From Myxococcota bacterium (GTDB lineage Bacteria > Myxococcota_A > UBA9160 > JAFDDA01): a stretch of 64,000 nt of DNA. Below, one piece after another: positions 18,526 to 39,186 of this stretch. The notes below the pieces were generated by a model that was not told where the DNA came from, made no database searches, and saw nothing but the letters and a program-made list of their open reading frames with translations. Where the stretch lies: contig OZ245817.1 in the NCBI GenBank assembly GCA_965228475.1, forward strand, positions 2,912,001 through 2,976,000, written 5' to 3'. A program made the translations under genes and the position numbers. Numbering within the stretch: the stretch's first letter is position 1; each line of letters starts with the position of its first letter.

Positions 18526-18551
18526 AGTGCCGCTCGGGCGCCGACGGTTCC
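18526..18551 (-). promoter_or_regulatory. ECF-type promoter motif copy 1
   Basis: GGAACC-N13-CGGCACT. Confidence 0.6.
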
Positions 18552-18563
18552 ATGGCACGCCGA

Positions 18564-19682
18564 TCAGGCGAGCAGCCGGCGCCTCCTGGCGGCGGCAAGC
18601 AGCGGCAGGAGGACCGCGATCTCCGTTCCGAGGCCGCAGCCCGAGCTCGCCTCGACGTCTCCGTCGGCGCTCGCGCACTGCGGGTCGTTCGGGAAGTCGA
18701 TCAGGCCGTCGTTGTCGTTGTCGATCCCGTCGGCGCACTGGAAGGCCTCGGAGGGATCGTTGAGTCCCTTGCAGCCCGGGTCGTCGGGGTGGTCCGCGAG
18801 GCCGTCGCCGTCGTTGTCGATCCCGTCGTCGCAGGCGAGCGCGAGGGAGTACTCGGATTCGTCCGAGGCGCCGTCGCAGCCCGGGTCGTCGAAGCCCAGG
18901 CCCAGGTTCCCACCGTCATGGTCGGCGCGGCCGTCGCCATCGTTGTCGTAGCCGTCCTGGCAATCCGGCACGTCGAGGTTGGCCTCGACCCACGCGACGG
19001 CGGTGTCCAGGGTCGACTGGAACTCGTTGTACGCGAAGACCATCCAGAAGCGCGGGGAAGGCGCGACTGCGTCCGCGGCGAGCACCGGGTCGATGGACGC
19101 CTCGAGGGCAACGAGGTAGATGCCGCTCGCTGCGCCGCCGGTCGGCCGCAGGTGGTAGTCGATGTGGCGGTGGATGCCTCCGGTGGAGGGCTCCGTCGCG
19201 ATCAGGAAACCGGAGACCGGTGCCGTTCCTCCGTCCGCGATGGCCAGGTTGGCGCCACGGGAAATCTCGACGGTCTCACTCCCTGGGACCGGCCCCCAGC
19301 TGACGGCGCCGTCGCCGTCCCAGTAGGAGAGGTTCCGCCCCGTCAGGGGCTCCACCACGATGTCGAAGTAGAGATCAGCGTCGTCCGGCAGGCCGACCAT
19401 CCCCGGCGGGGAGTCGTTCGAAGTGTGGCCCGGCGCGTCCGTCCACAGCCCGCCCTGGCCCGAGTTGAAGTTGAACGTGTCCGAGAAGACGCGGACGTCG
19501 GGAACGAGCTGCAAGAGGTCGAAATCGGTGGCGCCCGTCTTCACGTGGCCGTCATCGATCCCGTAGAGCATGTCGAGGTGCTGGGCGTTCGAGGGCCCTG
19601 CCGTGAAAGCGAACCCCGCCAGGATTGCGGCCCCAAGCTGGACCTTCGCGATCCGCAACCGATTCGACGCCCGGTTCGACAC
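18564..19682 (-). CDS. Surface protein paralogous to the PEP-CTERM protein, with three Ca-binding CxDGxDNDxDG repeats and a GCGLG (MYXO-CTERM-like) anchor
   Basis: GTG with GGAGG RBS; SNA-QHLD; LSYWDG; IHRHIDY; C-terminal SSGCGLGTEIAVLLPLLAAARRRR. Confidence 0.82.
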   Translation of the reverse strand: MSNRASNRLRIAKVQLGAAILAGFAFTAGPSNAQHLDMLYGIDDGHVKTGATDFDLLQLVPDVRVFSDTFNFNSGQGGLWTDAPGHTSNDSPPGMVGLPDDADLYFDIVVEPLTGRNLSYWDGDGAVSWGPVPGSETVEISRGANLAIADGGTAPVSGFLIATEPSTGGIHRHIDYHLRPTGGAASGIYLVALEASIDPVLAADAVAPSPRFWMVFAYNEFQSTLDTAVAWVEANLDVPDCQDGYDNDGDGRADHDGGNLGLGFDDPGCDGASDESEYSLALACDDGIDNDGDGLADHPDDPGCKGLNDPSEAFQCADGIDNDNDGLIDFPNDPQCASADGDVEASSGCGLGTEIAVLLPLLAAARRRRLLA

Positions 19683-19739
19683 CCAGTACCTCCCTCCGCG
19701 CTCGTGTGCGCACTTGTGCACAGGTCCGTGCGGTGAGGT

Positions 19740-19765
19740 AGTGCCGGCCGGCCCCGAAGGGTTCC
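19740..19765 (-). promoter_or_regulatory. ECF-type promoter motif copy 2
   Basis: GGAACC-N13-CGGCACT. Confidence 0.6.
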
Positions 19766-19812
19766 CGTCGATCCCCGCTTTTCTCGTCAGAACGAGGCCC
19801 CCTAGACCGATC

Positions 19813-19838
19813 GGAACGCATCGAGTAGGGTCGGCGCT
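19813..19838 (+). promoter_or_regulatory. ECF-type promoter motif copy 3 (degenerate)
   Basis: GGAACG-N13-CGGCGCT, abutting ATG 19840. Confidence 0.4.
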
Positions 19839-19839
19839 C

Positions 19840-20163
19840 ATGGGCCTCCGTCGAACCAGCACGTGGATCCTGATCGCGAGCTTCATTGCGTCCGTGCATC
19901 TGATGCCGGGCGTTCACGAGCTCTCGCACGACGGACATCCCGCGCACGCGGAAGCGAGTGACAACGCGGAGACCTCTGCCGCCGAGGCGGAGTGCGATTT
20001 CTGCGCGCTCTTGTCCGGTGCCCGGCTCGGACTCACGGGAGCCTCGAGCCACGCGGATCGCACCGTCCCTGCTCCGACCCGCCTCGAGGCTCTTCCGGAA
20101 AGCCCGCACTTCGCTGCGCGCTTCGATTCGCCCGCCTCGCCGAGAGCCCCGCCCGCCGCCTAG
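19840..20163 (+). CDS. DUF2946-like leader protein (hydrophobic N-terminus, His cluster, CxxC, C-terminal RAPP)
   Basis: HELSHDGHPAH...ECDFCALL...SPRAPPAA-stop. Confidence 0.78.
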   Translation: MGLRRTSTWILIASFIASVHLMPGVHELSHDGHPAHAEASDNAETSAAEAECDFCALLSGARLGLTGASSHADRTVPAPTRLEALPESPHFAARFDSPASPRAPPAA

Positions 20164-20178
20164 TACCTGGGCTGTGGC

Positions 20179-20198
20179 AGGGACGCACCTGCGTCCCT
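20179..20198 (+). promoter_or_regulatory. Hairpin between the RAPP leader and the ECF gene
   Basis: AGGGACGCA-CC-TGCGTCCCT, starting 16 nt after the leader stop. Confidence 0.5.
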
Positions 20199-20231
20199 TG
20201 GTTCCGACTTCGAACCTGCGGGCGAACCGCC

Positions 20232-20837
20232 ATGAAAACATCGACCTGTCGAGACGGGGGCGCACTCCGCTCCCATTCAGGTTCCGTGCACCGCCGAGAG
20301 GCCGACCGCCTCGAGTCCGTGCGCGATCATCTCAGTGAACTCCGTTCCGTCGCCACGCGCGTGCTGGGCTGTCGGGACGCGGCCGAGGATGCCGTTCAGG
20401 AGGCCCTCGTCACGCTGTGGGGCCTGCGCGATTCGCCGCCGAACCAGCGCGCGTGGCTCGTCCGGACCGTCCTGCATCGGAGCCTTCACGCGCGCCGCAC
20501 CGCGATGCGCAGGCGGAAGTGGGAGACGCGCGCGGGCGAGGAGCTGACCCGTTGGTGCGCCCTCTGCGCCCCCGGCGACGAGCTCGAGCGGCGGGAGCTG
20601 AGGCGCACGCTCGACCGCGCCCTCGAGGGCCTCTCGGAGGAGCACCGCACGGTGCTCGCGCTGCGCGAGATCGAAGACCTCGACTACGAGGAGATCTCCC
20701 GCGCGCTGGAGGTCCCGGTCGGAACGGTGCGATCCCGGCTGAACCGGGCCCGGGCCGCCTTCCGGTCGCAGCTGCAGAGCCAGGCGTCGGCCCTGGGGCA
20801 CGAGGCGCCGCAACCCGCCCGCCAGGGGATGCGATGA
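20232..20837 (+). CDS. ECF sigma factor with linker CxxC
   Basis: AEDAVQEA, RAWL, LREIEDLDYEEIS...GTVRSRLNRAR; WCALC between regions 2 and 4. Confidence 0.9.
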   Translation: MKTSTCRDGGALRSHSGSVHRREADRLESVRDHLSELRSVATRVLGCRDAAEDAVQEALVTLWGLRDSPPNQRAWLVRTVLHRSLHARRTAMRRRKWETRAGEELTRWCALCAPGDELERRELRRTLDRALEGLSEEHRTVLALREIEDLDYEEISRALEVPVGTVRSRLNRARAAFRSQLQSQASALGHEAPQPARQGMR

Positions 20838-22777
20838 GCTGCGCCGCACGCATGGCGGCGCTGATCCTGGCGCTCGGGCTGGTTCCCGGTGTCGCCGCCG
20901 CGGCCAAGGGCGACCGCTCGGTCCGCATCGGCACCCATGCTCGCGTGCTTCTCGAGCAGGCGGTGACGCGCGTCTCCGTGGCGGACCCGTCGATCGTCGA
21001 CGTCCAGATCCTGAACGCGCGGGAGCTCCTGGTGCTGGGGCGCCGCGTCGGCCAGACCAACGTGATCCTCTGGCTCGACGACGGCTCCGTCGACGACCGG
21101 CTCTGGACGGTCCACCGCGACCTCTCCTTGCTGAACTCCGTGCTGCGCGACATCCACCGCGGCGTGCGCGCCGAGAGCGCCGCCGATCGCGACGCGATCG
21201 TGCTGCGCGGCCGCGTGCCGAACGTCCGCTTCTCGCGCGCCGCCGAGGAGGCCGCGCTGCGCTTCTTCTCGGGCGGCGCCACGCAGACCGAGGGCGGGCT
21301 CGTCGTCCAGGTGCCCGGTGGCGGAGCGCCGGAGCCCTCGGGTGGGGCCTCGGCCCAGGAAGGCGAAGGGGCGGCCGAGCCGGCCGTCCGCGCGGCGACG
21401 AGCCGCCGAACCACCGGCCAGACCGTGCGCGTTCTCAACCTGATCCGCGTTCAGGAGCTCCCCGAGACCCTCGAGGAACGGATCCTCTCGGCCACCCGCC
21501 CGATCGGAGGCGAAGAGGTGCGGGTGCGCCGGATCGCCCGGGGCGACGCACCCGACGACCGTGCGGACAGCTTCATCCTGGAAGGACACGTCCAGAACCA
21601 GGTCACCCTCGTCCGCGTCCTGACCGTCGCCGCGCAGGTGCTCGGCGGCGGGGCCGGCACGACGGACATCCGCACGATTGCCGACGAGGCCGGTTCCCTG
21701 CGACAGGGCGGCGGCGGGGGCGGCAGCGGCGGAAACGTCGCCGCCGTGGTCTCGACCGCGGGCAGCCGCTCGGGAGGCGCCGGGGGGTCGAGCAGCGTGC
21801 GAACCAATCCGGCCCGGGCGCCCGCGCTGACCGCGGCCGGCGGCCGGATCCTCTCGTTCCTGGAAGTGCGCGACCTCCCGCAGGTCCGGATCGAGGCGCG
21901 CCTCTACGAGGTCAGCCGGGCGCGGCTCCGGGACTGGGATCCGAGTGCGAACCTGCTGCTCGGCGATTTCTCGCAGGGCGCGCTCCTGCCCTCTCCTCTC
22001 GCCGCCCTCTCCCAGGGCGCCGGAGCCGCGAGCGTGGGCACCGGGAGCTCGACCGTCCAGAACGTGCTCTCCCTGATCGGCGGCGGCCTCGCAAACAGCT
22101 TCCAGGTCCAGAGCGGCATCGTCGCACTCGACCTGCTCTTCTCCCTCCTCGAAGAGGAAGGGATCGCGCGCAGCCTCGCCACGCCGTCGCTCACGGTGCT
22201 CTCGGGCGAAACGGCGAACCTGAACGTCGGAGGCCAGATCCCGATCGCCACGACGATCGAGACCCAGACGAGCGCCGCCAGCGGCACGCTCTTCAGCTCC
22301 ACGGTCTTCGCCGACTTCGGCGTCAACCTGAGCGTGGTGCCCCGGGTGGGCGAGAACGACTTCGTGACCCTCGACGTCACGCCGAGCATCTCGGCGCCGG
22401 ACCTCACGTTGACCTCGAACATCTCGAACGCCACGGGCGCGACCCAGACGACGACCGCCTTCGAGACGCGCAGCCTCAGCACGAGCGCGCGCCTCCTCGA
22501 CGGCCACGCCCTGGTCCTCGCGGGGCTGCTCCAGCAGAACGCCTCCGAGGACGCGCGTTTCACCCCGGGGCTCCACCGCGTTCCGGGCCTCGGCTGGCTG
22601 GCACGCAGCCAGGGGCGCCAGCGGGACGACCTCGAACTGGTGATCGTGATCAGCCCGAACATCGTGCGCGACCCGGCCCCGCGGGTTGCGCTCTGGGAGT
22701 TCGCCTCGACGGCGGAGCTCTTGCGAGACGACCTACCGGCGATCCCGGCCCCGCGGCCGGCGCCGGTGATTCCCTGA
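20834..22777 (+). CDS. cpaC: Tad secretin CpaC/RcpA
   Basis: RVSVADPSIVDV...GQTNVILW; QVRIEARLYEVSR; LATPSLTVLSGETA...GGQIP; ELVIVISPNIV. Confidence 0.88.
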   Translation: MSCAARMAALILALGLVPGVAAAAKGDRSVRIGTHARVLLEQAVTRVSVADPSIVDVQILNARELLVLGRRVGQTNVILWLDDGSVDDRLWTVHRDLSLLNSVLRDIHRGVRAESAADRDAIVLRGRVPNVRFSRAAEEAALRFFSGGATQTEGGLVVQVPGGGAPEPSGGASAQEGEGAAEPAVRAATSRRTTGQTVRVLNLIRVQELPETLEERILSATRPIGGEEVRVRRIARGDAPDDRADSFILEGHVQNQVTLVRVLTVAAQVLGGGAGTTDIRTIADEAGSLRQGGGGGGSGGNVAAVVSTAGSRSGGAGGSSSVRTNPARAPALTAAGGRILSFLEVRDLPQVRIEARLYEVSRARLRDWDPSANLLLGDFSQGALLPSPLAALSQGAGAASVGTGSSTVQNVLSLIGGGLANSFQVQSGIVALDLLFSLLEEEGIARSLATPSLTVLSGETANLNVGGQIPIATTIETQTSAASGTLFSSTVFADFGVNLSVVPRVGENDFVTLDVTPSISAPDLTLTSNISNATGATQTTTAFETRSLSTSARLLDGHALVLAGLLQQNASEDARFTPGLHRVPGLGWLARSQGRQRDDLELVIVISPNIVRDPAPRVALWEFASTAELLRDDLPAIPAPRPAPVIP

Positions 22778-22829
22778 CGAGAAGTGAAGACCGCCCGGTG
22801 AGCGCACCGGGCACCAAGGAGGAAGAAGG

Positions 22830-23246
22830 ATGCGATTGAAGAAGCGCGGACTGCGGGACGAGCGAGGTGCCGCCCTGGCCGAGTACGGACTGCTGCTCGC
22901 CGGCGTCGCGATGGTCTGCATGCTGGCCGTCTCGGTGCTCGGCACGAAGGTCGGCGGCCTGATCGGCTCGGTGGCGACGATGATCCCGGGAACCACCATC
23001 GACCTCGATGCCCCGGTGCTCGTGGGCACGCTGCTCGAGACCCAGGCCACGGACATCAACGGCGACCAGATCAAGGAGATCAACATGCCGCTCGACTCCG
23101 TGGTCGACCGCAACTCGGCCACCGTGCGCGAAGAGGGCCTCTCGCCTCGCCTCGGCCAGGGCATGGGACTCGACCCGCACGCCACCTCCCACGCGGTCCA
23201 GGTGGGATCGGGCCAGAACCCCTTCCACGCCGGCGGCGGGAACTAG
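22830..23246 (+). CDS. flp: Flp type IVb pilin with long C-terminal extension
   Basis: DERG/AALAEYGLLL Flp motif; strong AAGGAGG RBS; 138 aa. Confidence 0.82.
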   Translation: MRLKKRGLRDERGAALAEYGLLLAGVAMVCMLAVSVLGTKVGGLIGSVATMIPGTTIDLDAPVLVGTLLETQATDINGDQIKEINMPLDSVVDRNSATVREEGLSPRLGQGMGLDPHATSHAVQVGSGQNPFHAGGGN

Positions 23247-23265
23247 CGGAGCCGAGAGCGGGAAC

Positions 23266-24228
23266 GTGGATCGGCGTCGACGCAGAGAAGGCGGGGGCGT
23301 GCTGCTCGAGTTCGCCCTCGTGATGGGCGTGCTCTGGATGCTGGTGGCCGGGACCATCGAGCTCGGTCGCATGGTCGCGGCCGGCCACCTCATCCAGGGC
23401 GCCGCCCGTTCCGTGGCGCGAAGCATGGCGCTCGAGCCAACGGGTGCGAACACGTCCTTCGCGATGGCGATCCAGAACTTCTTCGACCCCGACTACCTCG
23501 TGATCGACATGGCCGCGTGCAGGGCCTTGGACATCACACCCGAGCAGCTCGCTCGCGGTGACGAGGCCGAGGAGTTCGACGGACTCCCGCTCCTGAACCG
23601 CCTGCTCTTTCCGCTGATGATTCGGGAAGACCGGGACGTCGATGGCGAAGAACGCAGCTTCCTGCGCTATCCGGGGACGCTCGTTCGACACCTCTCCGCG
23701 CCGCCGGCCAAGCCCTGCGCCACCGCCTACACGGTGGCCGTCCCCGAGCTCCGCTCGGAAGGCGGCTCGACGCGGGTGTGTTGGCACCGGGTGGTCGAAG
23801 AGCTCGTGAGTGGCGGGACGGACGGGACTCGTTTCGCGCTGTCCTGTGCGGGCGAACCCTGCGGGATGGCCGGCGTCCAGGTTCGCTTCCCGTTCCAATC
23901 GGCCGCATTCCCCGCATGGCGGGAGACCGGAGAGATCCTCCCCGACGGCCGGCCGCAACAGCGCGTCGCCGCCTGGAACGAAGGCGCGCCCGGCGAGCCC
24001 ATCTCCGCCAGCGGAGGCAGCGAAGGCTGTTCGGATCTCTCCGGGAAGTTCGACAACACCGCGCGCGTCGGGATCCTCGGCATCGAGGACGGCCGCGTCG
24101 ACGCCTACGGCGGCCCGCTCGGCCTGGGCGCCCTCCGCGTCCTCCCCGAGATCGCCTCGGGGCCGAGCCGCGCCTATCGCAAGGTGCTCGCCGGGAGCGC
24201 CCTCTACCCCCGCGAAGGATTCCTCTGA
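23266..24228 (+). CDS. TadE-like pseudopilin with large Cys-containing domain
   Basis: EGG/GVLLEFALV...TIELGR...AARSVAR. Confidence 0.78.
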   Translation: MDRRRRREGGGVLLEFALVMGVLWMLVAGTIELGRMVAAGHLIQGAARSVARSMALEPTGANTSFAMAIQNFFDPDYLVIDMAACRALDITPEQLARGDEAEEFDGLPLLNRLLFPLMIREDRDVDGEERSFLRYPGTLVRHLSAPPAKPCATAYTVAVPELRSEGGSTRVCWHRVVEELVSGGTDGTRFALSCAGEPCGMAGVQVRFPFQSAAFPAWRETGEILPDGRPQQRVAAWNEGAPGEPISASGGSEGCSDLSGKFDNTARVGILGIEDGRVDAYGGPLGLGALRVLPEIASGPSRAYRKVLAGSALYPREGFL

Positions 24229-25094
24229 TGCGACGACGATCGAGCACGTTTTCCGACTGGCCCTTCCGGCTCGGCCTCGTGGCGTTTGCCGCGCTCGGCG
24301 CCGCCCTCGTGTACGTCGTGGCCGAGCGTTCGAACGACGACTCCGATCGGCTGGCCGGCCCGCCGCCGGGGACCACCGCCGTCCCGGTCCTCGCCCGCCC
24401 GCTTCCCGCGTTCACCGCGATCGAGCTCGAGCATCTGATCGATCCGGCCACGGGCGGGTTCGCCGCGATCTACCTCCCGACGGATTCCCTCTTCGACTCC
24501 ACGCTCACGGAGCCCCAGGCCCTGCTCGGCCGCGTGCTGGCCAACGACAAGCGGGCCGGCCTCGTGTTCTCGGAGAACGACTTCATGCCTCGCGGCACGC
24601 GGCCCGGCCTGGTCGCCGGCATCCCGGCCGGGAAGCGCGCCGTTCGCCTCGAGGCGAGTCGCGTCTCGGGCCTGGTCGGTCTCCGCCGGGGCGATCGGCT
24701 CGATCTCATGGTGAGCGGCCGGAGCCGGAACGCCGCGGCGCGCCCGGGCCAGCTCCTCGGCCGCCGCAGCCGCGCCGTGGTCCAGAACGGCATGATCGTC
24801 GAGCCCGCGCGGGCGCGCCGGTCGGCGGCCGACGGCAAGATCATCGAGGAGGTCGTGATCGCGATCGATCCTTCGGAGGTCGCCGGCCTGACGGCCGCGC
24901 TCGACGACGGACTGCGCATCGACACCCTGCCCCGCTCCGGCCAGGGAGGCGCCACCCAGGAAGAGGACGCCTACGGCGGCCGCGCCCACGAGGAGATTGC
25001 CGAGATCGACCTCATCCGCGGAACGCGCCGCACCGTCGAGACCACCACCGGCGGGCCGCGCCCTCCGGCCGTCGCCAGCGGCCCTCCTCTCTGA
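24228..25094 (+). CDS. cpaB: CpaB/RcpC (SAF domain)
   Basis: TM helix, VPVLARPLPAFT, IPAGKRAVRL...SGLVGLRRGDRLDL. Confidence 0.8.
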   Translation: MRRRSSTFSDWPFRLGLVAFAALGAALVYVVAERSNDDSDRLAGPPPGTTAVPVLARPLPAFTAIELEHLIDPATGGFAAIYLPTDSLFDSTLTEPQALLGRVLANDKRAGLVFSENDFMPRGTRPGLVAGIPAGKRAVRLEASRVSGLVGLRRGDRLDLMVSGRSRNAAARPGQLLGRRSRAVVQNGMIVEPARARRSAADGKIIEEVVIAIDPSEVAGLTAALDDGLRIDTLPRSGQGGATQEEDAYGGRAHEEIAEIDLIRGTRRTVETTTGGPRPPAVASGPPL

Positions 25095-25097
25095 CCC

Positions 25098-27367: not shown

Positions 27368-27383
27368 GCAGACGGAGGATGCC

Positions 27384-29578: not shown

Positions 29579-29884
29579 ATGAAGCGCTTCTCGCTCCTCA
29601 TCACGGCCGTCGCCGCACTGGCCCTCGGCTGCGCGACCGGCGGCGGCCACGCCGACGACCACGAGCACCACCACGGCAACGACGGCCACGCCAACGCCCA
29701 CGAGCACCATCACGGCGACGACGGCCACGCCAGCGAACACGAACACCACCACGGCAACGACGGGCATTCGAGCGAGCACCAGCACCACCACGGCGACGAC
29801 GGCCACGCCAACGAGCACGAACACCACCACCACGGCGACGCCTCCGAGCGCGAAGACTCCGATCACCACCACCACGCCGAGTAG
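29579..29884 (+). CDS. Poly-histidine lipoprotein (30 His in 101 aa)
   Basis: GGAGG RBS; LALGC lipobox; five 13-aa repeats. Confidence 0.82.
   Translation: MKRFSLLITAVAALALGCATGGGHADDHEHHHGNDGHANAHEHHHGDDGHASEHEHHHGNDGHSSEHQHHHGDDGHANEHEHHHHGDASEREDSDHHHHAE
29645..29839 (+). repeat. Five 39-nt coding tandem repeats (approximately GHxxxHEHHHGxD)
   Basis: Read directly from the sequence. Confidence 0.85.
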
Positions 29885-29977: not shown

Positions 29978-30865
29978 ATGGCCACCGCAGCGCACCCGAC
30001 CGACGGAATCGACGTCCAGCGCCTCACGGGCTCTCTCGGGGCGGAGGTCCGGGGGATCGACCTGCGCAGCGCAGGTGCCGCCGAGGCCGAGACCATCCTC
30101 GAGCTCGTTGCCCAGCACCTGGTCCTGTTCTTCCCCGACCAGCACCTGACGCCCGACGAGCACATCGCCTTCGGCCGGCTGTTCGGGAAGCTCGAGGGTC
30201 ACCCGAACCTCTCGCTCGATGCCGAGCGCCCGGAGTTCTTCGAGCTGCGCGCCGAAGGCGGATCCGGGGCGATCGCCGACGAGTGGCACAGCGACCTCAC
30301 CTGCCAGGCCGAGCCCTCGATCTTCGCGATCCTGCACATGAAGAAGTGCCCGCCCTTCGGCGGCGACACGCTCTGGGCCAACATGTACAAGGCCTACGAA
30401 GCGCTCTCCCCGCCGATGAAGGACCTCTGCGAGAGCCTCACGGCGATGCACGACGCGAGCCCCCACTACACGCCGGAGCGTCGCGCCGTCCACCCCGTCG
30501 TTCGCGTGCACCCCGTGACCGGCCGCCGCTCGCTGTTCGTGAACGAACACTTCACCCGGCGCATCGTCGAGCTGAGTCACCCCGAGAGCGAAGCGCTGCT
30601 GCGCTTCCTCACCGGTTGGGCCACGAACGACCGTTTCACCGTCCGCTACCGCTGGAGCGAGGGCACGATCGCCATGTGGGACAACCGGTGCACGCAGCAC
30701 CACGTGCTCGACGACTTCGAGGGCGAGCGGGTCATCCAGCGCGTCACCGTCATGGGCGACCGGCCCGAGGCCGCCACGCCGCCGCGCTACGAGCCCTTCG
30801 GCGGAAGCTTCAGCGCCGCCAGCTGGCGCGACAAGCCGCTCAAGGACTTCCTGCGCAAGGGCTGA
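29978..30865 (+). CDS. TauD/TfdA family Fe(II)/2-oxoglutarate dioxygenase
   Basis: WHSDLT, GGDTLWAN, HPVVRVHP, WDNRCTQH. Confidence 0.93.
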   Translation: MATAAHPTDGIDVQRLTGSLGAEVRGIDLRSAGAAEAETILELVAQHLVLFFPDQHLTPDEHIAFGRLFGKLEGHPNLSLDAERPEFFELRAEGGSGAIADEWHSDLTCQAEPSIFAILHMKKCPPFGGDTLWANMYKAYEALSPPMKDLCESLTAMHDASPHYTPERRAVHPVVRVHPVTGRRSLFVNEHFTRRIVELSHPESEALLRFLTGWATNDRFTVRYRWSEGTIAMWDNRCTQHHVLDDFEGERVIQRVTVMGDRPEAATPPRYEPFGGSFSAASWRDKPLKDFLRKG

Positions 30866-30926
30866 CCCTCCGACGGCAGCTATGCTCCCCTGCCCGCCGC
30901 ACGCCGGCGGAGCAGGAGGAGCGGAC

Positions 30927-31838
30927 ATGGCCGACCGGACGGTCTCGGAGATCTTCGACCCCACGCGCTGGGAGGCCGTCCCCGGCTTCGACTTCGAGGA
31001 CATCACCTACCACCGTGCCGTCGACCAGGGCACGGTTCGCATCGCCTTCGACCGCCCCGAGGTACGGAACGCCTTCCGCCCGCGCACCGTCGACGAGCTC
31101 GACCGCGCCCTCGACCACGCGCGGATGACGACCGACGTCGGCTGCGTCCTGTTGACCGGGAACGGCCCCTCGCCCAAGGACGGCGTCTGGGCCTTCTGCA
31201 GCGGCGGCGACCAGCGCATCCGCGGCCGGGACGGCTACAAGTACGCCGAGGGCGAGACGGCCGAGACGATCGAGCCCGGCCGGGCGGGCCGCCTCCACAT
31301 CCTCGAGGTCCAGCGCCTGATCCGCTTCATGCCGAAGGTCGTGATCGCCGTGGTGCCGGGCTTCGCCGTCGGCGGCGGCCACAGCCTCCACGTCACCTGC
31401 GACCTCACCCTCGCGAGCGCCGAGCACGCCGTCTTCAAGCAGACGGACACGGACGTCGCGAGCTTCGACGGGGGCTTCGGTTCCGCCTATCTCGCCAAGC
31501 AGATCGGCCAGAAGTTCGCCCGGGAGATCTTCTTCCTCGGCCAGGGCTACTCCGCCGAGCAAGCGCACCACATGGGGATGGTGAACCGCGTCGTCCCCCA
31601 CGCCGAGCTCGAACGCGTCGCCCTCGAGTGGGCCCGCGAGATCAACACCAAGAGCCCGACGGCCCAGCGCATGGCCAAGTTCGCGATGAACCTCGTCGAC
31701 GACGGCCTCGTCGGCCAGCAGGTCTTCGCGGGCGAGGCCACCCGGCTGGCCTACATGACGGACGAGGCCGAGGAAGGGCGCGACGCCTTCCTCGAGAAGC
31801 GGGATCGGGACTTCTCGAAGTTCCCCTGGCACTTCTGA
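30927..31838 (+). CDS. menB: 1,4-dihydroxy-2-naphthoyl-CoA synthase
   Basis: [53 protein letters not shown]. Confidence 0.95.
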
Positions 31839-32097
31839 GGCCGGGTCGGCCCCTCGGGGGCCGGTGGCCGGCCGATCCCGCCCAAGCTTTCGGATTCACG
31901 GGGGTTTCGCCGATCGCGGGGCCGGAGCGGATCGGATAAACTGCAGCGCGCGTTCGACTCGCCCCGAGTTCCGGACGCAGCCCGAAGGAAACCACCGGGG
32001 AGGCATTCTCCCTGTCACGCGAGGCCGAACCGCGACCTCCCGCCCCCTCCCCGAAACGGGGCGGGGCGCCACACCCACCACGGACGACCCACCATCC

Positions 32098-33768
32098 ATG
32101 GACGCCCCTGCCACCCAGTACCAGCTGACGAATCCCTTCGACGCGCCCCCGCCCGGCGACGGCGAGACCGACGCCGCGCCCCAGGGCCTCTACGACGCCG
32201 CGCTCGAGCTCGGCCACGAGCTGAACGCGAAGCCCGTCGTCGGCGGCGGCCTCGCGCGCGTCCGCGTGCAGCACGCCAAGCAGCGCATGACGGTGTTCGA
32301 GCGGATCGACGTCCTCACGCGCGAGACGCCGAACCTGCTCTGGACCAACTGGGGCCCGGCGCTCGACGGCGCCTCGATCGTGACCGGCATCCTGCGCATC
32401 GGCGACCGCGACGTCGCGGTCTACGGCCACGACTTCACCCTGCGTGCCGGCTCCATGGACGCGACCAACGGCGACAAGCTCGCGCGCCTGATCTACATGG
32501 CCGGCGAGCGCGGCATCCCGCTGATCGGCATGAACGATTCCGCGGGCGCGTTCGTGCCGGCCGGCGTCGGCGGCCTCGACGGCTACAGCGAAGCGTTCAC
32601 CGCGCTCCGCAAGATCTCGGGCGTCGTCCCCTCGATCAGCCTGATGTTCGGGTACAACGCCGGCGGCGGCGCGTACCTGCCGCGCCAGGGATCGTTCATG
32701 ATCCAGTGCGAAGACACCTTTACCGGCTTGACCGGCCCCGGCGTCGTGAAGAGCGCGCTCGGCGAGGACGTGACGGCCGACGAGCTCGGCGGCCCCGGCG
32801 TGCACGGCCTGAACGGCGTCTGCGACCTCACGACGGCCGACGAACTCGCCTCGCTGCGCACCGCGATCCGCCTGCTCAGCTACCTCCCGGACAACCATCA
32901 CAAGACGGCGCCCTTCCAGGAGACCTCGGATCCGCTCGATCGCTTCACCGTCGAAGAGGACATCCTGTTCCGGCGCACGTTCAACTCGCCCGCCGGGATG
33001 AACGCGCCGCTCGACATCACGCTGTTCATCCAGCAGATCTGCGACCACGGCGACTTCTTCGAGCTCCAGCCGGCCCGCGCGCGCAACATGGTGACGGCCT
33101 TCGGGCGCATCGGCGGCCACGTCGTCGGCTTCGTGGCGAACAACTCGGCGGTGGCCTCGGGCCAGATCGACGTCGACGCCGCGCGCAAGGCGACGCGCTT
33201 CATCCGCTTCTGCAACGTCTACAACGTTCCGCTGATCTTCCTCGAGGACACGACGGGCTTCCTGCCCGGCACCGAGCAGGAGAGCCGCGGCATCATCCTC
33301 GAGGGTCGGCGCCTGCTCGACGCGATCATCGACGTGCGCGTGCCCTCGATGACGCTGATCATCCGCAACGCCTTCGGCGGCGCCTACGCCGCCTACAACT
33401 CGCACTTCGTCGGGGCCGACCGGGTCTTCGCCATGCCGCACTCGCGGATCGCGGTCATGGGGCCGGGCGGCGGCACGGAATTCGTCTACAAGGGCGAGAT
33501 CCGGGCGCTCGAAGCCGAGTACCGCAAGGCGATAGAGGACGGCACGCCCGAAGCCGACGCCGTCCGCGCGCGTGACGCCGGCCTCGCCAAGCTCCGCGAT
33601 CAGTACGAGCGCGAGCTGATGAACCCGAAGGAAGCGCTCTCGCTGGGCTCGGTGTCCAGCGTCGTCATCCCAGGAACGAGCCGCCGCGTGCTGGCGCAGA
33701 ACCTCGACTTCCTGATGCGCACCTACACCCCCGGCCCGATGGCCGGCCCGCAGCGGGAGTTCGAATAG
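32098..33768 (+). CDS. Acyl-CoA carboxylase carboxyltransferase subunit
   Basis: [50 protein letters not shown]. Confidence 0.9.
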
Positions 33769-36515
33769 TGCTCGACCGAAACCTCACCCCCTCCCGGTTC
33801 CAGGACGCCGCGTCCGAGTGGCAGCGCTCGTTCTCCCTCGAATCGCTGAAGGTGCTCGTGGTGTGCCGCGGCCCCGTGCGGCTCGAGGCCTTCGAGATCT
33901 TCGACCGGATCGGCGTCGGCGAGTACGGGATGCTCCTCTCGGAGAAGGACTCGGTCGTCTACCCGCGCTGCCTCGCGCCGGAGCTGCGCACCCTCCGCTT
34001 CCCGAACAACGTCCACCGCGTGGCGGACTACATGGGCGTGGGCCAGGAGGAGAAGCAGGAGCGCATCGCCGAGATCATCGAGATCGCGAAGAGCGAGGGC
34101 TACACGCACTTCTTCGCCGGCTACGGCTTCATGGCCGAGGACGCCGAGTTCATCCAGGCGATCGAGGACGCGAACCTCGGGTTCCTCGGCCCCTGCTCGG
34201 CGGTGGTCCGCCGCGCCGGCGCCAAGGACGAAGCCAAGAAGCTCGCGCGCGAGCTCGGCAACGCCGTCATCCCCGGCGTCGACGACATCTCCTCCCAGGC
34301 GCTCCTGAAGAAGGTCGAAGGCCGCAAGGGGCTCGAGGCGCTCGCCGCAGAGCACGGGCTCTCGTTCTCCTGGGACGACGCCGTCTCGGAGTCCGAGAAC
34401 GCCGAAGCGCTGCTCCAGGCCGGCTACGGCTCGCGCGTCGAGCTCGTCGGGATTCCGGATCTCCAGGCCCAGGCCGAGGCGATCTGCAGCGAGATGTGGG
34501 CCGAGTATCCGAGCAACCGCATCCGCTTCAAGCACATCGGCGGAGGCGGTGGCAAGGGCCAGCGTGTCGTTGCCTCGCCCGAGGAGATCCCGGCCGCGGT
34601 CATGGACATCCTCGCCGAGTCGAAGGTGGTCGAGCCCGGCTCGAACCGGAACTTCCTCGTCGAGCTGAACATCGAGAGCACCCGCCACAACGAGATCCAG
34701 CTGATCGGCAACGGCAGCTGGTGCCTCTCGCTCGGCGGCCGCGACTGCTCCGTGCAGATGCACGAACAGAAGCTCGTCGAGGTCTCGCTCACGAAGGAGC
34801 TGCTCGAGGCCGAGGCCAAGGCGATCGGCGGCAAGGCCCAGGCCATCCTCGAGGGCGACGTCGGCACGCTCGCGCGCATGGAGAGCGAGGGCGAGCGCTT
34901 CGGCGAAGCGACCGGCCTGAACTCCGTCTCGACCTTCGAGTGCATCGTCGAGGGCTTCAACCACTTCTTCATGGAGATGAACACGCGGATCCAGGTGGAG
35001 CACGGCGTCACCGAGCTCGCCTACCGCCTGAAGTTCACGAACCCCGACGACGCCCAGGACTTCTTCTTCGTCGACGAACTGATCGAGGCCATGGCGCTGC
35101 TCGGCCTCCACGGCGAGCGCGTGCCGAAGCCCGAACGCGTCGTGCGCTCGCTCTCGGGCCTCGAGGTCCGGATCAACGCCACGAACCAGGCACTGCAGCC
35201 CCACGCCGGCGGCATGATCCGCAGCTGGACGCCGCCGATCGAGGGCGAGATCCGCTTCGACCAGGGCATCGGCGTCCCGAACCCGGACACCGGCTCCTTC
35301 GTCTACTACAACCTCGCGGGCGCCTACGACTCGAACGTCGCCCTCGTCCTGACCGACGGCCCGACGCGCCACGAGAACTACGAGCGCATGGCCGAGGTGC
35401 TCCGCCGCATGGAGCTCCGCGGCGACGACCTGCAGACGAACCTCGACGTCCACTACGGGCTCATCAACTGGTTCCTCGGCAAGGGCGTGATGGCCGAGCC
35501 GAACACGCGCTTCATGGCATCGTTCCTGGCGGCGGTCGGCGCCCTCCAGCAGGAGGTGAACGGCCTCGACCTCGACCTCGCGGCGAGCGAGATCCTCGGC
35601 CGCCTCGACCACGCCGAAGCCAAGCAGGCCCTCGCCGCGCAGGAGACCCTGCTCAAGCGCCCGCTCGCGAAGCTCTTCGGGCGCCCGCACAGCCTGGCCG
35701 GCTTCCTCGGCCGGTACGACGGCGTGCTCTGGGAGCGCGAAGGCGAAGACCTCCGCTTCGTGAAGACCCCGATCGCGTTCCTCGACGCGCTCTACCTCTA
35801 CCTCGACATGGAGGAGCGGCCCGACGTCTCCCCCTCGGAGAAGATCTGGGACCACGACGAGGAGATCCTCGCCGCCGGCCGTGCCTTCTACCGCACCGTT
35901 GCCGAGCGCACCGGCGCGGCGGACTGGGCCTCGATCGAAGCCCTCTTCGCCTCCGACGACGGCGCCGCGAAGCTCTGCGAAGGCGACGATGCGCTTTGGC
36001 ACCAGTGCCAGGCCAGCCACCGCGGCTTCAGCGTCGGGGCCCCGCTCCTGCTCCTGATTCCCCGCATCGGCATCCGCAGCGAGTTCCTCGACGTCACCGT
36101 GAACGAGGAGCTCGCCTCGGTCTTCCCGGAGCGCTTCCTCGACGCGGAGCGGATGGAGACGGACGCCCGCGCCCTCGCCCCGGCCCCGAAGGCCAGCGCG
36201 GACGAGATCGTGACGCCCATGGGCGGAAACTTCTACGCCCGCGAGGCGCCGCACCTCCCGCTGCTCGTCGAGGAGGGCCAGCACTTCGAGGAAGGCCAGC
36301 CGCTCTTCATCATCGAGGTGATGAAGATGTTCAACAAGGTGGTCGCGCCCTTCGCCGGGACCGTCACCAAGAACCTGATGGCCGACCGCGACGGCGCCGT
36401 CGTCAAGAAGGGCGAGCCGATCCTCAAGATCGAGCCCGACGAGCGCATCGAAGAAGAGTCGCCCGAGGCCCGCGAAGCGCGCATCCGCGCCGCGACGTTG
36501 GCGCTGCTCGACTGA
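33768..36515 (+). CDS. Biotin carboxylase / biotin carrier fusion subunit
   Basis: AGYGFMAED, GGGGKG, RDCSVQ, FMEMNTRIQVEH, EVMKM. Confidence 0.9.
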   Translation: MLDRNLTPSRFQDAASEWQRSFSLESLKVLVVCRGPVRLEAFEIFDRIGVGEYGMLLSEKDSVVYPRCLAPELRTLRFPNNVHRVADYMGVGQEEKQERIAEIIEIAKSEGYTHFFAGYGFMAEDAEFIQAIEDANLGFLGPCSAVVRRAGAKDEAKKLARELGNAVIPGVDDISSQALLKKVEGRKGLEALAAEHGLSFSWDDAVSESENAEALLQAGYGSRVELVGIPDLQAQAEAICSEMWAEYPSNRIRFKHIGGGGGKGQRVVASPEEIPAAVMDILAESKVVEPGSNRNFLVELNIESTRHNEIQLIGNGSWCLSLGGRDCSVQMHEQKLVEVSLTKELLEAEAKAIGGKAQAILEGDVGTLARMESEGERFGEATGLNSVSTFECIVEGFNHFFMEMNTRIQVEHGVTELAYRLKFTNPDDAQDFFFVDELIEAMALLGLHGERVPKPERVVRSLSGLEVRINATNQALQPHAGGMIRSWTPPIEGEIRFDQGIGVPNPDTGSFVYYNLAGAYDSNVALVLTDGPTRHENYERMAEVLRRMELRGDDLQTNLDVHYGLINWFLGKGVMAEPNTRFMASFLAAVGALQQEVNGLDLDLAASEILGRLDHAEAKQALAAQETLLKRPLAKLFGRPHSLAGFLGRYDGVLWEREGEDLRFVKTPIAFLDALYLYLDMEERPDVSPSEKIWDHDEEILAAGRAFYRTVAERTGAADWASIEALFASDDGAAKLCEGDDALWHQCQASHRGFSVGAPLLLLIPRIGIRSEFLDVTVNEELASVFPERFLDAERMETDARALAPAPKASADEIVTPMGGNFYAREAPHLPLLVEEGQHFEEGQPLFIIEVMKMFNKVVAPFAGTVTKNLMADRDGAVVKKGEPILKIEPDERIEEESPEAREARIRAATLALLD

Positions 36516-36525
36516 GCGGGGCGGG

Positions 36526-37071
36526 ATGAAGCTCCTCGTCATCCTCGGAAGCCTCCGAGCGGCCGCCTTCAGCCGAAAGCTCGGAGAAGCGGTGGTCTCG
36601 CTCGCGCCGGACGGGACGGAGACCGTAACGACGGACGGCGGCGCCCTCCCCCTCTACAACCAGGACCTCGACGGCGAGGAGAAGCCCGCGCCCGTGGCGA
36701 CGCTGCTCGAGCAGGTGACCACGGCGGACGGCATCGTCTTCGTCACGCCCGAGTTCAACTACGGGATCCCGGGCCCGCTGAAGAACCTCATCGACTGGGC
36801 CTCGCGCCCCGCCTACAACTCCCCGCTCAAGGGAAAGCCCTCCCTGATCCTTGCGCACTCGCTCGCGCCCTCCGGCGGAGCACGCGCGCACGTTCAGCTC
36901 TCGAGCGTCCTCGCAGGGACCCTCACCCCGCTCTTCGTGGCGCCCGGCTTCGTGGTCCCCCAGGTGCACGAGAAGTTCGACGCCGAAGGCACGCTCACGG
37001 ACGAGATCACGAAGGCCCGCCTGCAGGGCACGCTCGCGGAGTTCGCGAAATGGGCCGGGAGCCAGGGCTGA
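36526..37071 (+). CDS. NADPH-dependent FMN reductase (ChrR-like)
   Basis: GSLRAAAFS, TPEFNYGIPGPLKNLIDWASR. Confidence 0.9.
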   Translation: MKLLVILGSLRAAAFSRKLGEAVVSLAPDGTETVTTDGGALPLYNQDLDGEEKPAPVATLLEQVTTADGIVFVTPEFNYGIPGPLKNLIDWASRPAYNSPLKGKPSLILAHSLAPSGGARAHVQLSSVLAGTLTPLFVAPGFVVPQVHEKFDAEGTLTDEITKARLQGTLAEFAKWAGSQG

Positions 37072-37139
37072 GCCGCAGCCTGCGTGCCCACGAGCGACAC
37101 GGCTGCAGCCAGGAAAGCCGACTCTCGCCGCCCCGCGCT

Positions 37140-37379
37140 TCAGCGCGTGACCGCACCGATCGAGACTTCTCCGTCCGGACTTTCCCACTCGTTCAGGTCA
37201 CAGGCGCCGTCGTCGCAGACCACGACGTAGTCGACGCCCTCGCAGGTGAAGTGGCTACGGTCATCCACGCGCGTCACGAAAGTATCCGGACAGAACTCAT
37301 GGGCCGCCTGGTAGGCCGCCTTCTCGTCGGCGAAGTAAGCGCTCAATCCAAGAAAGAAGATGTCCAAAATCAGGGTCAT
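37140..37379 (-). CDS. Small four-Cys hypothetical protein (79 aa)
   Basis: GGAGA RBS, hydrophobic N-terminus, own ECF-type promoter. Confidence 0.55.
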   Translation of the reverse strand: MTLILDIFFLGLSAYFADEKAAYQAAHEFCPDTFVTRVDDRSHFTCEGVDYVVVCDDGACDLNEWESPDGEVSIGAVTR

Positions 37380-37418
37380 GGGTCGTCTCCCGGGCGATGG
37401 CGCAGGCCGCCCTTTTCC

Positions 37419-37493
37419 CCTGAGACGACCGGACCCGGCTCGAGGTCACACGAAAGATTCTTGTGACCTTTGCCGTTCCTGGACCATCTCAGG
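37419..37493. promoter_or_regulatory. Back-to-back ECF promoters TGTGACC-N16-CRTCTCAGG
   Basis: Minus copy 37419-37450, plus copy 37462-37493. Confidence 0.65.
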
Positions 37494-37514
37494 AAACGTC
37501 GAGGGGAGGTCTTC

Positions 37515-38216
37515 ATGACCGGAGAACACGGCCTCGAAGCCCTGCCCGGGCCGACCCTGGCAGACGAGGAAGTCATCGCGAGGGTTCGCCGCGGCGAGAC
37601 GGAGCTCTTCGAGCTGTTGATGCGGCGATACAACCAGCGGGTCTATCGCGCGGTGAGGGCCATCCTTCGCGACGGGCCCGATCTCGAGGACATCCTCCAG
37701 CAGGTGTGGCTGAGCGCCTACCTCCACCTCGACCGCTTCGAGGGACGCTCGCGCTTCTCGACGTGGCTTCATCGCATCGCCCAGAATGCCGCGCTCGATC
37801 GCACCCGGCGTCCGGTCCGGCTGGTCGCCGTCGGCGCATCTCCCGAGGCCGGGGATCCGGTAGGTGCACCCGCGGCCGACCCGGAGCGCAGCCTGCTCGC
37901 CCGCGAGCAGGCGCGCGCCATCGAACGGGCGCTCGATGCGCTGCCCGAGTCGCACCGGCGCGTCTTCGTGCTGCGCGAGGTCGAGGGCCTCTCGACGGCC
38001 GAAGTCGCCGAGGCGCTGGGTGTCGGGGAAGGCGCGGTGAAGACCCGCCTCTACCGCGCCCGCGCCGATCTGCGTGAGCGACTCGGCCGGGACGTCGGCG
38101 ACGCGACTAGCCTGGCCTTCCGATTCGGTGGATCCCGATGCGACGCGCTCGTCCGACGGGTGATGGTCCAGCTACCGGGCCTCGAATCCGGCTCGAACGG
38201 CCAGACGGACGCGTAG
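37515..38216 (+). CDS. ECF sigma factor with C-terminal FxFxGxRCD extension
   Basis: FELLMRRYNQRVYR, FSTWLHRIA, LREVEGLSTAEVA...VKTRLYRAR. Confidence 0.92.
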   Translation: MTGEHGLEALPGPTLADEEVIARVRRGETELFELLMRRYNQRVYRAVRAILRDGPDLEDILQQVWLSAYLHLDRFEGRSRFSTWLHRIAQNAALDRTRRPVRLVAVGASPEAGDPVGAPAADPERSLLAREQARAIERALDALPESHRRVFVLREVEGLSTAEVAEALGVGEGAVKTRLYRARADLRERLGRDVGDATSLAFRFGGSRCDALVRRVMVQLPGLESGSNGQTDA

Positions 38217-38359
38217 AGTGCGCCCGTCGATCCGCGGAGCGCCCGAGCCCGGAACACTGGAGCGGCCTCACCTCCGCGGGTTCCGGGGCTCTCCGACAGG
38301 CCGCGGCCACCGGAGCCGCCGACGTCGCCCACGAATCGACCCGTCCGAGGGTGTCGCTT

Positions 38360-39067
38360 TCATGGAGAACCTGATGAACCGACGGCGCGGCGCTCGCTCC
38401 CCGGCCGGACGTTCCACGTCACGATCGTCGTGACCAAGAAGAACAAAGTGAAGATCGTGGTGCCCCAGGCCGGGCGGACGTAGGCCCCGTAGGGGCCGGG
38501 CAGCATCTCGGCAAGAGGTTGCGTCGCCGGAGCAAGGATCGGGGACAGAATCGCCATCCACCGGCGATAGTGCGTCTTCCGGAACAGCACGACCGCGACG
38601 AACGCAAGCGATCCGACCGGGGCGCTCCAGGTGATGAGCTGGAGGACGGCTTCGTGGTGCGCGTGCATCCGGTCGACCATCGTCGTGAGGCTGCCGGCGA
38701 GTTCGGCCGAAGCGGCCACCTGGGCCTGAAACCCCGCCGCGTAGAGTGCGTAGGACCCGTGGTAGCCCGGGAAGATCGAGAAGGCGTACGCGAGGAAGAG
38801 AACCGGCGGCAGCGCGAACTTCCTCCCCGCCGGTTCGAGGGCCACGTAGACCGGCCAGAAACCGAGGAGCCAGAACGGGATGGCCGCGTTTCCGAGGATG
38901 CTCCCGAGGAAGACCTGGTCGTAGGGCGCTTCGGCGAGCTGGGCGTACGTATTCACCCCAGGGCCCGGTTCGGGCCCGCCTTGCAGCATGTAGTCGGCCA
39001 CGCCGTTGACGATCCCGCCTGCAACGGCCAGCAGGCCCGCGGCGCGGAGAAGGGTCGTTCCCGTCAC
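38360..39067 (-). CDS. Multi-pass membrane protein (DUF6796-like)
   Basis: About six hydrophobic helices; GTG start with RBS. Confidence 0.65.
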   Translation of the reverse strand: MTGTTLLRAAGLLAVAGGIVNGVADYMLQGGPEPGPGVNTYAQLAEAPYDQVFLGSILGNAAIPFWLLGFWPVYVALEPAGRKFALPPVLFLAYAFSIFPGYHGSYALYAAGFQAQVAASAELAGSLTTMVDRMHAHHEAVLQLITWSAPVGSLAFVAVVLFRKTHYRRWMAILSPILAPATQPLAEMLPGPYGAYVRPAWGTTIFTLFFLVTTIVTWNVRPGSERRAVGSSGSP

Positions 39068-39151
39068 GGATGCGATTCTCCCTTCCCATGTGTGCCGGCC
39101 GGGGCGGTCGAGTTCCGCGAAACGACAAGAGCCGGAGAATCCGGAAGCTCC

Positions 39152-39177
39152 GGAACTCCACTCGCCTCTCCGGCACC
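39152..39177 (+). promoter_or_regulatory. ECF-type promoter motif copy 4
   Basis: GGAACT-N13-CGGCACC; first G is 35 nt upstream of ATG 39187. Confidence 0.6.
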
Positions 39178-39186
39178 CCATGAGCG

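Follow-up and report, generated by a model that had tools for sequence, protein, structure and literature searches.

We describe a putative regulon of an extracytoplasmic function (ECF) sigma factor in a stretch of 64,000 nucleotides (nt) from the genome of an uncultured Myxococcota bacterium (GenBank GCA_965228475.1, contig OZ245817.1, positions 2,912,001 to 2,976,000), in the following called the window; positions refer to the window unless given as genome positions. A two-block motif in front of genes of a tight adherence (Tad) pilus locus recurs 19 kb away before a distant operon that begins with a CobW_C-like gene, and it is very probably a promoter read by the ECF sigma factor encoded in the Tad locus at 20232-20837 (+). 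Four sites of this motif, named A, B, D and D', are likely the promoters of one regulon of this sigma factor, the output of which would be gated after transcription by an upstream open reading frame (uORF) of the DUF2946 family. GGAACTC would act as -35 element and CGR-N-CGGCAC, 14 nt after GGAAC, as -10 region. The regulon would comprise two PEP-CTERM surface proteins of predicted beta-sandwich fold, probably the TadB/C genes that follow these, the DUF6796 protein and the operon for the CobW_C-like protein, a flavin adenine dinucleotide (FAD)-dependent oxidoreductase and a methyltransferase. In relatives the motif would also drive genes for the flp pilin, canonical COG0523 GTPases, a TonB-dependent receptor, transporters of the major facilitator superfamily (MFS) and MerC-like type, and sometimes the sigma operon itself. 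Binding of the sigma factor to the motif and the positions of the transcription starts are predictions from sequence.

Motif sites in the window and in the genome

An initial annotation of the window had placed four copies of a 26-nt pattern, GGAAC-N14-CGGCRCY (with the gap written as n-N13, which equals N14), between genes and in the correct orientation. All four are exact matches, at 18526-18551 (-, site A), 19740-19765 (-, site B), 19813-19838 (+, site C) and 39152-39177 (+, site D). Together with a fifth site absent from that annotation, D' at 39091-39116 (-), all are intergenic and each faces a gene. Site A, GGAACCGTCGGCGCCCGAGCGGCACT, is located 74 nt upstream of ATG 18451, with which a PEP-CTERM protein gene begins, site B, GGAACCCTTCGGGGCCGGCCGGCACT, upstream of the gene of a paralogue of 372 amino acids (aa). 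Site C ends 1 nt before ATG 19840, the first codon of the uORF. Sites D and D' are divergent: D, GGAACTCCACTCGCCTCTCCGGCACC, lies 9 nt before ATG 39187 of the CobW_C-like gene, D', GGAACTCGACCGCCCCGGCCGGCACA, 23 nt upstream of GTG 39067, where the DUF6796 gene starts.

Within the window, which has a GC content of 70%, four pattern matches were found versus 0.15 expected, a number reached in 0 of 100 shuffles; this statistic is inflated, because the pattern had been fitted to those sites. The whole genome, a single contig of 5.0 Mb, contained the pattern 34 times with the N14 gap versus 16-20 times with each of N12, N13, N15 and N16, a modest excess, and the shorter GGAAC-N14-CGGC 233 times. 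A weight matrix trained on sites of relatives only, with the reversed genome as null, gave 25.0 bits for D', the top match of the genome, 23.0 for B, 21.0 for A, 20.2 for D and 10.4 for C. Scores of at least 20 bits were obtained for 7 matches in the real and 1 in the reversed genome, scores of at least 18 bits for 14 and 4, respectively. The intergenic sites A, B, D and D' make up four of the seven best. High-scoring matches at the genome positions 2655178 (-), 453004 (+), 3425709 (-) and 4584406 (-) lie within or beside unrelated genes for a TetR/ABC1 kinase, an unknown protein and a fatty-acid hydroxylase. The labels in-gene and intergenic were taken from a crude codon-bias gene caller, which was used for this purpose only and missed the uORF and the CobW_C-like gene.

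Site C, counted as a member of the motif set in the initial annotation, was dropped because its score is background (659 real versus 603 null matches of at least 10 bits), because it is not conserved in the closest relative, and because a forward motif of at least 8 bits preceded the sigma operon in none of the 15 relatives' loci that have a strong opposite-strand motif there. Site B is kept in the closest relative (L025). A further doubt arises since the start rule given below places the transcription start of site C within the first codons of the uORF it should express. Site C is probably not a functional member of the set. A sigma-70 promoter scan of 18400-20400 yielded no promoter and no convincing terminator; a sigma-54 reading of CGGCAC was rejected by eye, as no TTGC follows at the right distance.

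Conservation of the motif in related genomes

The comparison covered 193 genomes of the same order, including the genome under study. At a threshold of E <=1e-28, orthologues of the sigma factor were present in 26 of these genomes, the own one counted, and the 24 loci around the relatives' orthologous sigma genes amounted to 323.6 kb. The genomes are related by descent, so that the counts overstate independence. In the 24 loci GGAAC-N14-CGGC occurred 57 times versus 6-16 times for each gap of N10-13 and N15-19. Positions outside the selecting pattern were conserved as well (T5.62, C6.76, C15.71, G16.75, A23.73, C24.75), and the consensus across this order of uncultured Myxococcota is GGAACTC-N8-CGR-N-CGGCAC. 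Counting only sigma loci that have the respective gene, a co-oriented motif of at least 15 bits stood upstream of flp in 14 of 18 loci, of PEP-CTERM homologues in 14 of 14, of the CobW_C-like gene in 4 of 4 and of the FAD oxidoreductase gene in 2 of 2. Other genes preceded by the motif in relatives encode canonical COG0523 proteins, a TonB-dependent receptor, MFS transporters, a MerC-family protein, an iron-type alcohol dehydrogenase and TadB/C. A stricter pattern, GGAACYC-N8-CG-NN-CGGCA, was found 69 times in the 26 genomes with the sigma factor (control with the reversed pattern 13) versus 124 times in the 167 others (control 65); these totals, like the overlap of sigma factor and CobW_C-like gene reported below, were tallied by hand.

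With directional -35 and -10 blocks, fixed spacing, a position near the neighbours of the sigma gene and conservation together with it, the motif has the layout of an ECF-type promoter. The recurrence could also be a compositional accident in a genome of 70% GC, for which speak the post hoc definition of the pattern, the abundance of GGAAC-N14-CGGC and the background score of site C. For C, accident is the likeliest reading. For A, B, D and D' it is contradicted by the spacing specificity, the conservation of unselected positions, the placement upstream of homologous genes across many genera and the co-occurrence with the sigma factor, and as an account of the recurrence as a whole we consider accident to have almost no probability.

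The sigma factor and its link to the distant operon

The sigma factor of 201 aa consists of the domains sigma2 and sigma4 only (Sigma70_r2 2.3e-11, Sigma70_r4_2 5.5e-16; TIGR02937 76.7 bits, cut-off 42.9). Among the NCBIfam equivalogs none reached its cut-off, the best being NF058625 with 86.5 versus 130 bits. Invariant in 25 of 25 orthologues are H82, H86 and C109xxC112, the His pair at region 2.4 and the CxxC motif in the linker between sigma2 and sigma4. At the positions of H82 and H86 normally N and D are conserved; their replacement by His may go with the unusual -10 element. The linker CxxC or the His pair could sense a metal or the redox state, or could account for the CGGC -10 element. 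A candidate anti-sigma gene was not seen next to the sigma gene, which secretin or TadB/C genes follow downstream. In the Tad locus the sigma gene is followed by genes for the secretin, the flp pilin, TadE-like proteins and the TadA ATPase. The RcpA/CpaC-like secretin and flp genes span 20852-23246 (+), with flp (22830-23246) starting 53 nt after the secretin gene; flp has no motif of its own in the window, and secretin and flp are probably in one operon with the sigma gene.

The proposal of the initial annotation that this sigma factor is connected with the distant operon is well supported by the comparison: the motif is conserved upstream of the homologues, the sigma factor, motif and CobW_C-like gene co-occur, and in some relatives the sigma and CobW_C-like genes are adjacent. 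Homologues of the CobW_C-like protein (E <=1e-25) were present in 28 of the 193 genomes, namely in 21 of the 26 with the sigma factor and in 7 of the 167 without; in one of these seven (G111) the sigma gene is split at contig ends, beside a CobW_C-like gene. Of 29 further loci with a CobW_C-like gene, 23 had a same-strand motif of at least 14 bits upstream of it. In L022 the motif-bearing CobW_C-like gene is part of one operon-like row with the uORF and the sigma gene; in L034, L038 and L040 the sigma gene adjoins genes for the FAD oxidoreductase and a CobW_C-like or COG0523 protein, each with the motif. The distribution of sigma factor, motif and CobW_C-like gene is patchy over six families, which suggests that the parts travel together.

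A real motif may also be read by another factor, either the second ECF sigma factor of the window (37470-38216, one gene from D'; NCBIfam equivalog PRK11922, 231.9 bits, cut-off 204), another of the roughly 20 ECF sigma factors, or a DNA-binding regulator. The second sigma gene is located 1 kb from D', sigma70 region 2 has 25 matches in the genome, the motif occurs in one genome (G026) in which no clear orthologue of the Tad sigma factor was found, and the operon of the Tad sigma factor mostly lacks the motif. Against this, neither sigma factor had a match in the four CobW_C-like module loci of 8.6-12.5 kb (L155-L158), nor in 29 short loci apart from L148, where it is a Tad-type sigma. The Tad-type sigma gene stands beside the motif in 24 loci, motif abundance follows its presence, and the two-block, directional layout with fixed spacing and without palindrome is that of a sigma promoter. 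We rate another reader of the motif as improbable. No motif copy was observed before the second sigma gene itself.

The DUF2946 leader gene and proposed control of the sigma factor

The uORF at 19840-20163 (+) codes for 107 aa and matches the Pfam family DUF2946 (PF11162) with 26.2 bits (cut-off 23.7); a six-frame search of the genome found it with 26.6 bits as the sole copy. It precedes the sigma gene in 21 of 25 loci. The peptide contains H26, C52xxC55 and, two residues before the stop, R102APP105. His, CxxC and RAPP are invariant in 21 of 21 orthologues, with RAPP 1-7 residues from the stop, and the spacing between CxxC and RAPP is 46 in the window and 44-47 in the 21 orthologues. The N-terminus shows in an alignment by eye an Arg followed by one hydrophobic segment, in some orthologues with an AxA-like site. 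By the DUF2946 match, CxxC, RAPP and their spacing the gene belongs to the CruR/CutF type of arrest-peptide uORFs.

Two members of this family have been characterized. In CruR of Bordetella pertussis (Bp2923), copper sensed via CXXC relieves the arrest at RAPP, which permits termination by Rho ahead of the next gene, and the CXXC-RAPP spacing of the family is 45 +/- 1-2, as described in part of PMC9426467; the RAPP arrest of CruR has been demonstrated in vitro (PMC12992588, in part). In CutF of Rhodobacter capsulatus, copper delays export and prolongs stalling, and a stem-loop hiding the ribosome-binding site of the next gene unfolds; according to the same source, CutF-like peptides are not all copper-specific (PMC9973294).

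Between uORF and sigma gene lies a spacer of 68 nt with hairpins, among them an 8-bp GC hairpin at 20180-20197 (+). The minimum free energy (MFE) of the region is -43.6 kcal/mol (z -2.1), and one predicted hairpin overlaps the last codons of the uORF. Many spacers of relatives start C-rich and G-poor. Pairing of the RAPP codons with the region before the sigma start appears in the MFE structure of the window (1% of the ensemble), not in the centroid, and the sigma starts of relatives are too uncertain for comparison. These features suggest a post-transcriptional control of the sigma factor by the uORF, which would probably respond to copper. The output of the sigma factor would then be set after transcription initiation: binding of a metal to the nascent leader peptide would alter ribosome stalling at RAPP, and altered stalling would change termination or translation initiation in the spacer. 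We infer the identity of the metal, copper by precedent, and the sign of the response. Since the targets in relatives are of the acquisition type, the regulon would be switched on under metal limitation, as in CruR. The CxxC in the linker of the sigma factor may add a second, cytoplasmic input of metal or redox state.

The DUF2946 protein could instead be a membrane-anchored anti-sigma factor sequestering the sigma factor, and not a leader peptide acting in cis. In 21 of 25 loci its gene stands upstream of the sigma gene and would be transcribed together with it, as genes for anti-sigma factors of the cnrY type are, and an invariant CxxC is present in both proteins. The short N-terminus with its Arg and the hydrophobic segment of the alignment suggest export rather than a cytoplasmic domain that could hold a sigma factor, however, and the protein has the DUF2946, CxxC and RAPP hallmarks of the CruR/CutF arrest peptides. 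The anti-sigma alternative appears very improbable to us.

Several observations weigh against the proposed regulon and its control by the leader peptide. The remaining three of the seven genomic matches of at least 20 bits are inside unrelated coding genes. The -10 element CGGC instead of CGT and the gap of 14 nt are atypical in comparison with common ECF promoters. Only 4 of 24 loci of relatives showed a strong motif upstream of the sigma gene: in L032, L033 and L043 it precedes the uORF-sigma operon, and in L038, for which a uORF was not found, it stands immediately before the sigma gene; in the window it is weak (site C). G026, a genome of 94% completeness, contains the motif and the CobW_C-like gene, while its best sigma match is at the level of a paralogue (9.2e-23). 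The spacer in the window is less C-rich than that of many relatives, so that a Rho mechanism as in CruR is no more than a candidate here. CruR and CutF respond to copper in opposite directions (PMC9973294, in part), and a downstream sigma gene is mentioned in the main text of neither PMC9426467 nor PMC9973294.

In its widest form, the proposal states that a CruR-type nascent-chain metal sensor gates an ECF sigma factor devoid of an anti-sigma factor, turning a cis switch into a trans regulon with an atypical promoter and coupling Tad pili and adhesin-like PEP-CTERM proteins to a module for metal handling centred on the COG0523-derived pseudo-GTPase. We put this forward tentatively, with somewhat less than even confidence.

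The distant operon and the zinc-starvation reading

The first gene of the distant operon, 39187-40230 (+), with an alternative start at GTG 39223, had been read in the initial annotation as COG0523. The derived protein of 347 residues matches CobW_C (PF07683, 2.4e-21) and the ZigA model (3.9e-37) with 128 bits, the cut-off being 600, over the profile positions 101-377 of 390. A match to the cobW GTPase domain (PF02492) was not obtained, and the protein is absent from the cobW matches of the genome. Inspection by eye of all 347 residues revealed neither a Walker A motif GxxGxGK[ST], in place of which LLTGLPTAS is found, nor CxCC, the defining metal-binding motif of COG0523. The N-termini in relatives are equally degenerate. 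With CobW_C as the only recognisable part, the protein is by its motifs a pseudo-GTPase derived from COG0523 and not a canonical zinc chaperone. Two long frames overlap at this place, 39006-40169 and 39187-40230, and homologues exist only for the latter. The gene was missed by the codon-bias caller, so its codon usage is atypical.

The start of the FAD/NAD(P)-binding oxidoreductase gene (40227-41474, +) overlaps the stop of the CobW_C-like gene, beside which it is found in most relatives' loci. The gene for an S-adenosylmethionine-dependent methyltransferase (41471-42163, +) is kept in the module in L128, L131, L154, L155, L156 and L157. The gene of the DUF6796 membrane protein (38360-39067, -) is divergent from site D; its homologue lies inside the module of CobW_C-like, oxidoreductase and methyltransferase genes in L128 and L155. 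These four genes form the conserved distant module, in varying order. In L155, the module locus of the closest relative, at 10468-10986 of that locus, a strong divergent motif (27.1 bits) faces a MerC-family membrane protein, not DUF6796, and a third motif precedes an extra paralogue of the 372-aa protein adjoining the module.

For site D a leaderless transcript beginning at ATG 39187 had been suggested. Among 52 sites of relatives with a called downstream reading frame, the start codon was 8-10 nt past the motif in 4 and 11-35 nt past it in 0; under a somewhat altered start rule the number rose slightly. This pattern suggests a near-leaderless subset of targets with transcription beginning about 35 nt past the first G, and ATG 39187 fits into this small class. 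For the CobW_C-like gene itself the distance is not conserved, as 31-420 nt separate the motif from the conserved N-terminal anchor in relatives.

Behind the methyltransferase gene, after a gap of 75 nt, follows a gene for ribosomal protein L28 (42238-42522, +). This copy has one Cys and is the C- form, whereas a copy at the genome positions 1339988-1340149 has CHVC...CTRC (C+). The initial annotation was right in seeing a Cys-poor paralogue; its linkage to the operon is not shared by relatives, where L28 is beside the module in 0 of 4 longer module loci (L155-L158) and without match in the 24 sigma loci (L021-L044). The gene is probably outside the conserved regulon. It has its own Shine-Dalgarno (SD) sequence, and between the methyltransferase stop and L28 the element GGAAC-N16-CGTC, which is typical of other ECF promoters, is located at 42169-42193, followed just before the SD by a hairpin, an imperfect inverted repeat of 17 nt (42184-42200/42210-42226). 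The elements in 42169-42226 may be a separate promoter and a leader structure for the C- L28 gene.

The initial annotation had interpreted the genes as a zinc-starvation regulon, independent or downstream of Zur, in which COG0523 chaperones and a zinc-free L28 are turned on when zinc is scarce. Several findings fit. Canonical COG0523 genes (cobW and CobW_C) carry the motif in L034, L038 and L040, a TonB-dependent receptor and transporters are among the targets in relatives, and L28 occurs in both forms. As had been stated, no Zur-like palindrome was seen: the region 39040-39200 holds only the two divergent motifs and short GC-rich repeats, the sequence of the Zur box of this lineage itself being not known. 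The 5-Mb genome has only one Fur-family gene, at the genome positions 4175244-4175594 (L159), hence Fur, Zur and PerR are not all present as separate proteins. Besides CxxC, a His is invariant in the uORF product, and the copper specificity of CutF-like peptides is not general (PMC9973294, in part). On the other side, nothing links the genes to zinc specifically. The COG0523 relative of the window lacks the P-loop GTPase and the CxCC site, L28 is not beside the module in relatives and is preceded by its own SD and a different promoter-like element, and znuABC, zinT and folE2 were not seen among the targets, for which no aimed search was made. The sensor-like element before the sigma gene belongs to the copper-responsive CruR/CutF family, of which both characterized members respond to copper (PMC9973294 and PMC9426467, each in part). 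A zinc-starvation regulon therefore seems unlikely to us, and a leader that would sense copper or another metal is the better supported input.

Surface proteins and neighbouring genes

The gene behind site A (17669-18451, -) has the SD sequence AAAGGAGAA before ATG 18451 and encodes a PEP-CTERM surface protein of 260 aa, recognized by Pfam PEP-CTERM and NCBIfam. Genes of the T2SSF/TadB-C type follow on the same strand (16706-17566 and below). In the family alignment H24, D26 and H166 are invariant, with one His just past the signal peptide and another in a DDHPDY-like motif. The structure model is a beta-sandwich (mean predicted local distance difference test, pLDDT, 82.9), and the fold search returned beta-sandwiches of fimbrial adhesins and pilins (Foldseek TM ~0.3-0.5; Z <=7.6, with lectin domains of fimbrial adhesins as best). 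We describe the protein as no more than a beta-sandwich, adhesin-like, the likeness being weak and within the range of common arrangements. Among these fold matches no CopC/YcnI-like copper proteins stood out, and the protein atlas gave only unnamed PEP-CTERM clusters. The 372-aa paralogue behind site B (18564-19682, -) starts at GTG 19682 or TTG 19658 and ends with a sorting-like C-terminal tail. Its C-terminal third carries acidic double-disulfide repeats (C-x-DG-x-DND-x-DG...), and the hydrophobic tail contains Gly, Cys and RRRR, unlike the PEP-CTERM end of the neighbour.

Past the Tad ATPase region, 29579-29884 is a small lipoprotein-like reading frame with a His-rich mature N-terminus (..GGGHADDHEH..) and the C-terminus ..HHAE; no family was matched, and the one homologue, in L024, is weak. 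The group of genes at 30882-36515, placed between the Tad locus and the second sigma gene, encodes an enoyl-CoA hydratase, a carboxyltransferase, a fusion of biotin carboxylase and biotin carboxyl carrier protein of 915 aa, TauD and a flavin mononucleotide (FMN) reductase, and apparently has no relation to the motif.

Implications

ECF regulons of uncultured lineages are mostly unknown, and here sequence comparison alone led to a consensus for the promoter, to the core of a regulon and to a candidate for its input. Promoter type, logic of the ECF regulon and uORF family are of known kinds. A DUF2946 uORF regulating a sigma gene was not found in the literature, neither in PMC9426467 and PMC9973294 with some of their supplements nor by a broader search, in which the one related case was that of RAPP peptides of another family before two Streptomyces ECF sigma genes. 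If the interpretation is true, it is the first case found of a CruR/CutF-type uORF with a transcription factor as regulated gene, a local nascent-peptide sensor extended to the joint control of adhesion organelles and metal homeostasis, and a test case for the role of the widespread P-loop-less relatives of COG0523. The CGGC -10 element together with His at two conserved positions of sigma2 represents a natural experiment in ECF promoter specificity.

Comparison with known systems

Zur regulons contain COG0523 genes and C- paralogues of ribosomal proteins. The window resembles them by a COG0523 relative and a C- L28 gene on the same strand within 3 kb, and three relatives have a canonical COG0523 gene as motif target. 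It differs in that no Zur box was seen, the control is by a sigma promoter, the COG0523 relative is without GTPase and metal motifs, and the linkage of L28 is not conserved.

Canonical ECF promoters have a -35 element GGAAC or TGAAAC and, after about 16-17 nt, a -10 element CGT. Common to them and the motif described here are the two-block directional form, the GGAAC -35 element and the position upstream of genes neighbouring the sigma gene; here, the -10 element is CGGCA(C), a conserved CGR lies 4 nt upstream of it, and the gap between GGAAC and CGGC is 14 nt. The sigma factors CorE and CorE2 of Myxococcus xanthus (former ECF44) are likewise myxobacterial, without cognate anti-sigma factor, equipped with a Cys pair between sigma2 and sigma4 and associated with metal-related genes. 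CorE-like sigma factors have CxC and a required Cys-rich C-terminal domain, whereas the sigma factor of the window has CxxC and no Cys after C112, and an assignment as CorE-like was rejected.

In Streptomyces lividans, RAPP-type arrest peptides (RAPP/RGPP) are encoded directly upstream of two ECF sigma genes (SLIV_33595, SLIV_33605), an arrangement like the one found here; these peptides, from an actinobacterium, are of another family and predicted to have four transmembrane segments, as far as described in part of PMC12992588. The closest counterparts of the leader are CruR and CutF, with which it shares the position as first gene of the operon, the DUF2946 family, an N-terminus resembling an export signal, CxxC, a C-terminal RAPP, a spacing of about 45 and a structured spacer. 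Their hosts are Proteobacteria and the regulated gene encodes a TonB-dependent transporter or a multicopper oxidase, whereas in the Myxococcota bacterium the downstream gene is that of an ECF sigma factor, with genes of the Tad pilus behind it.

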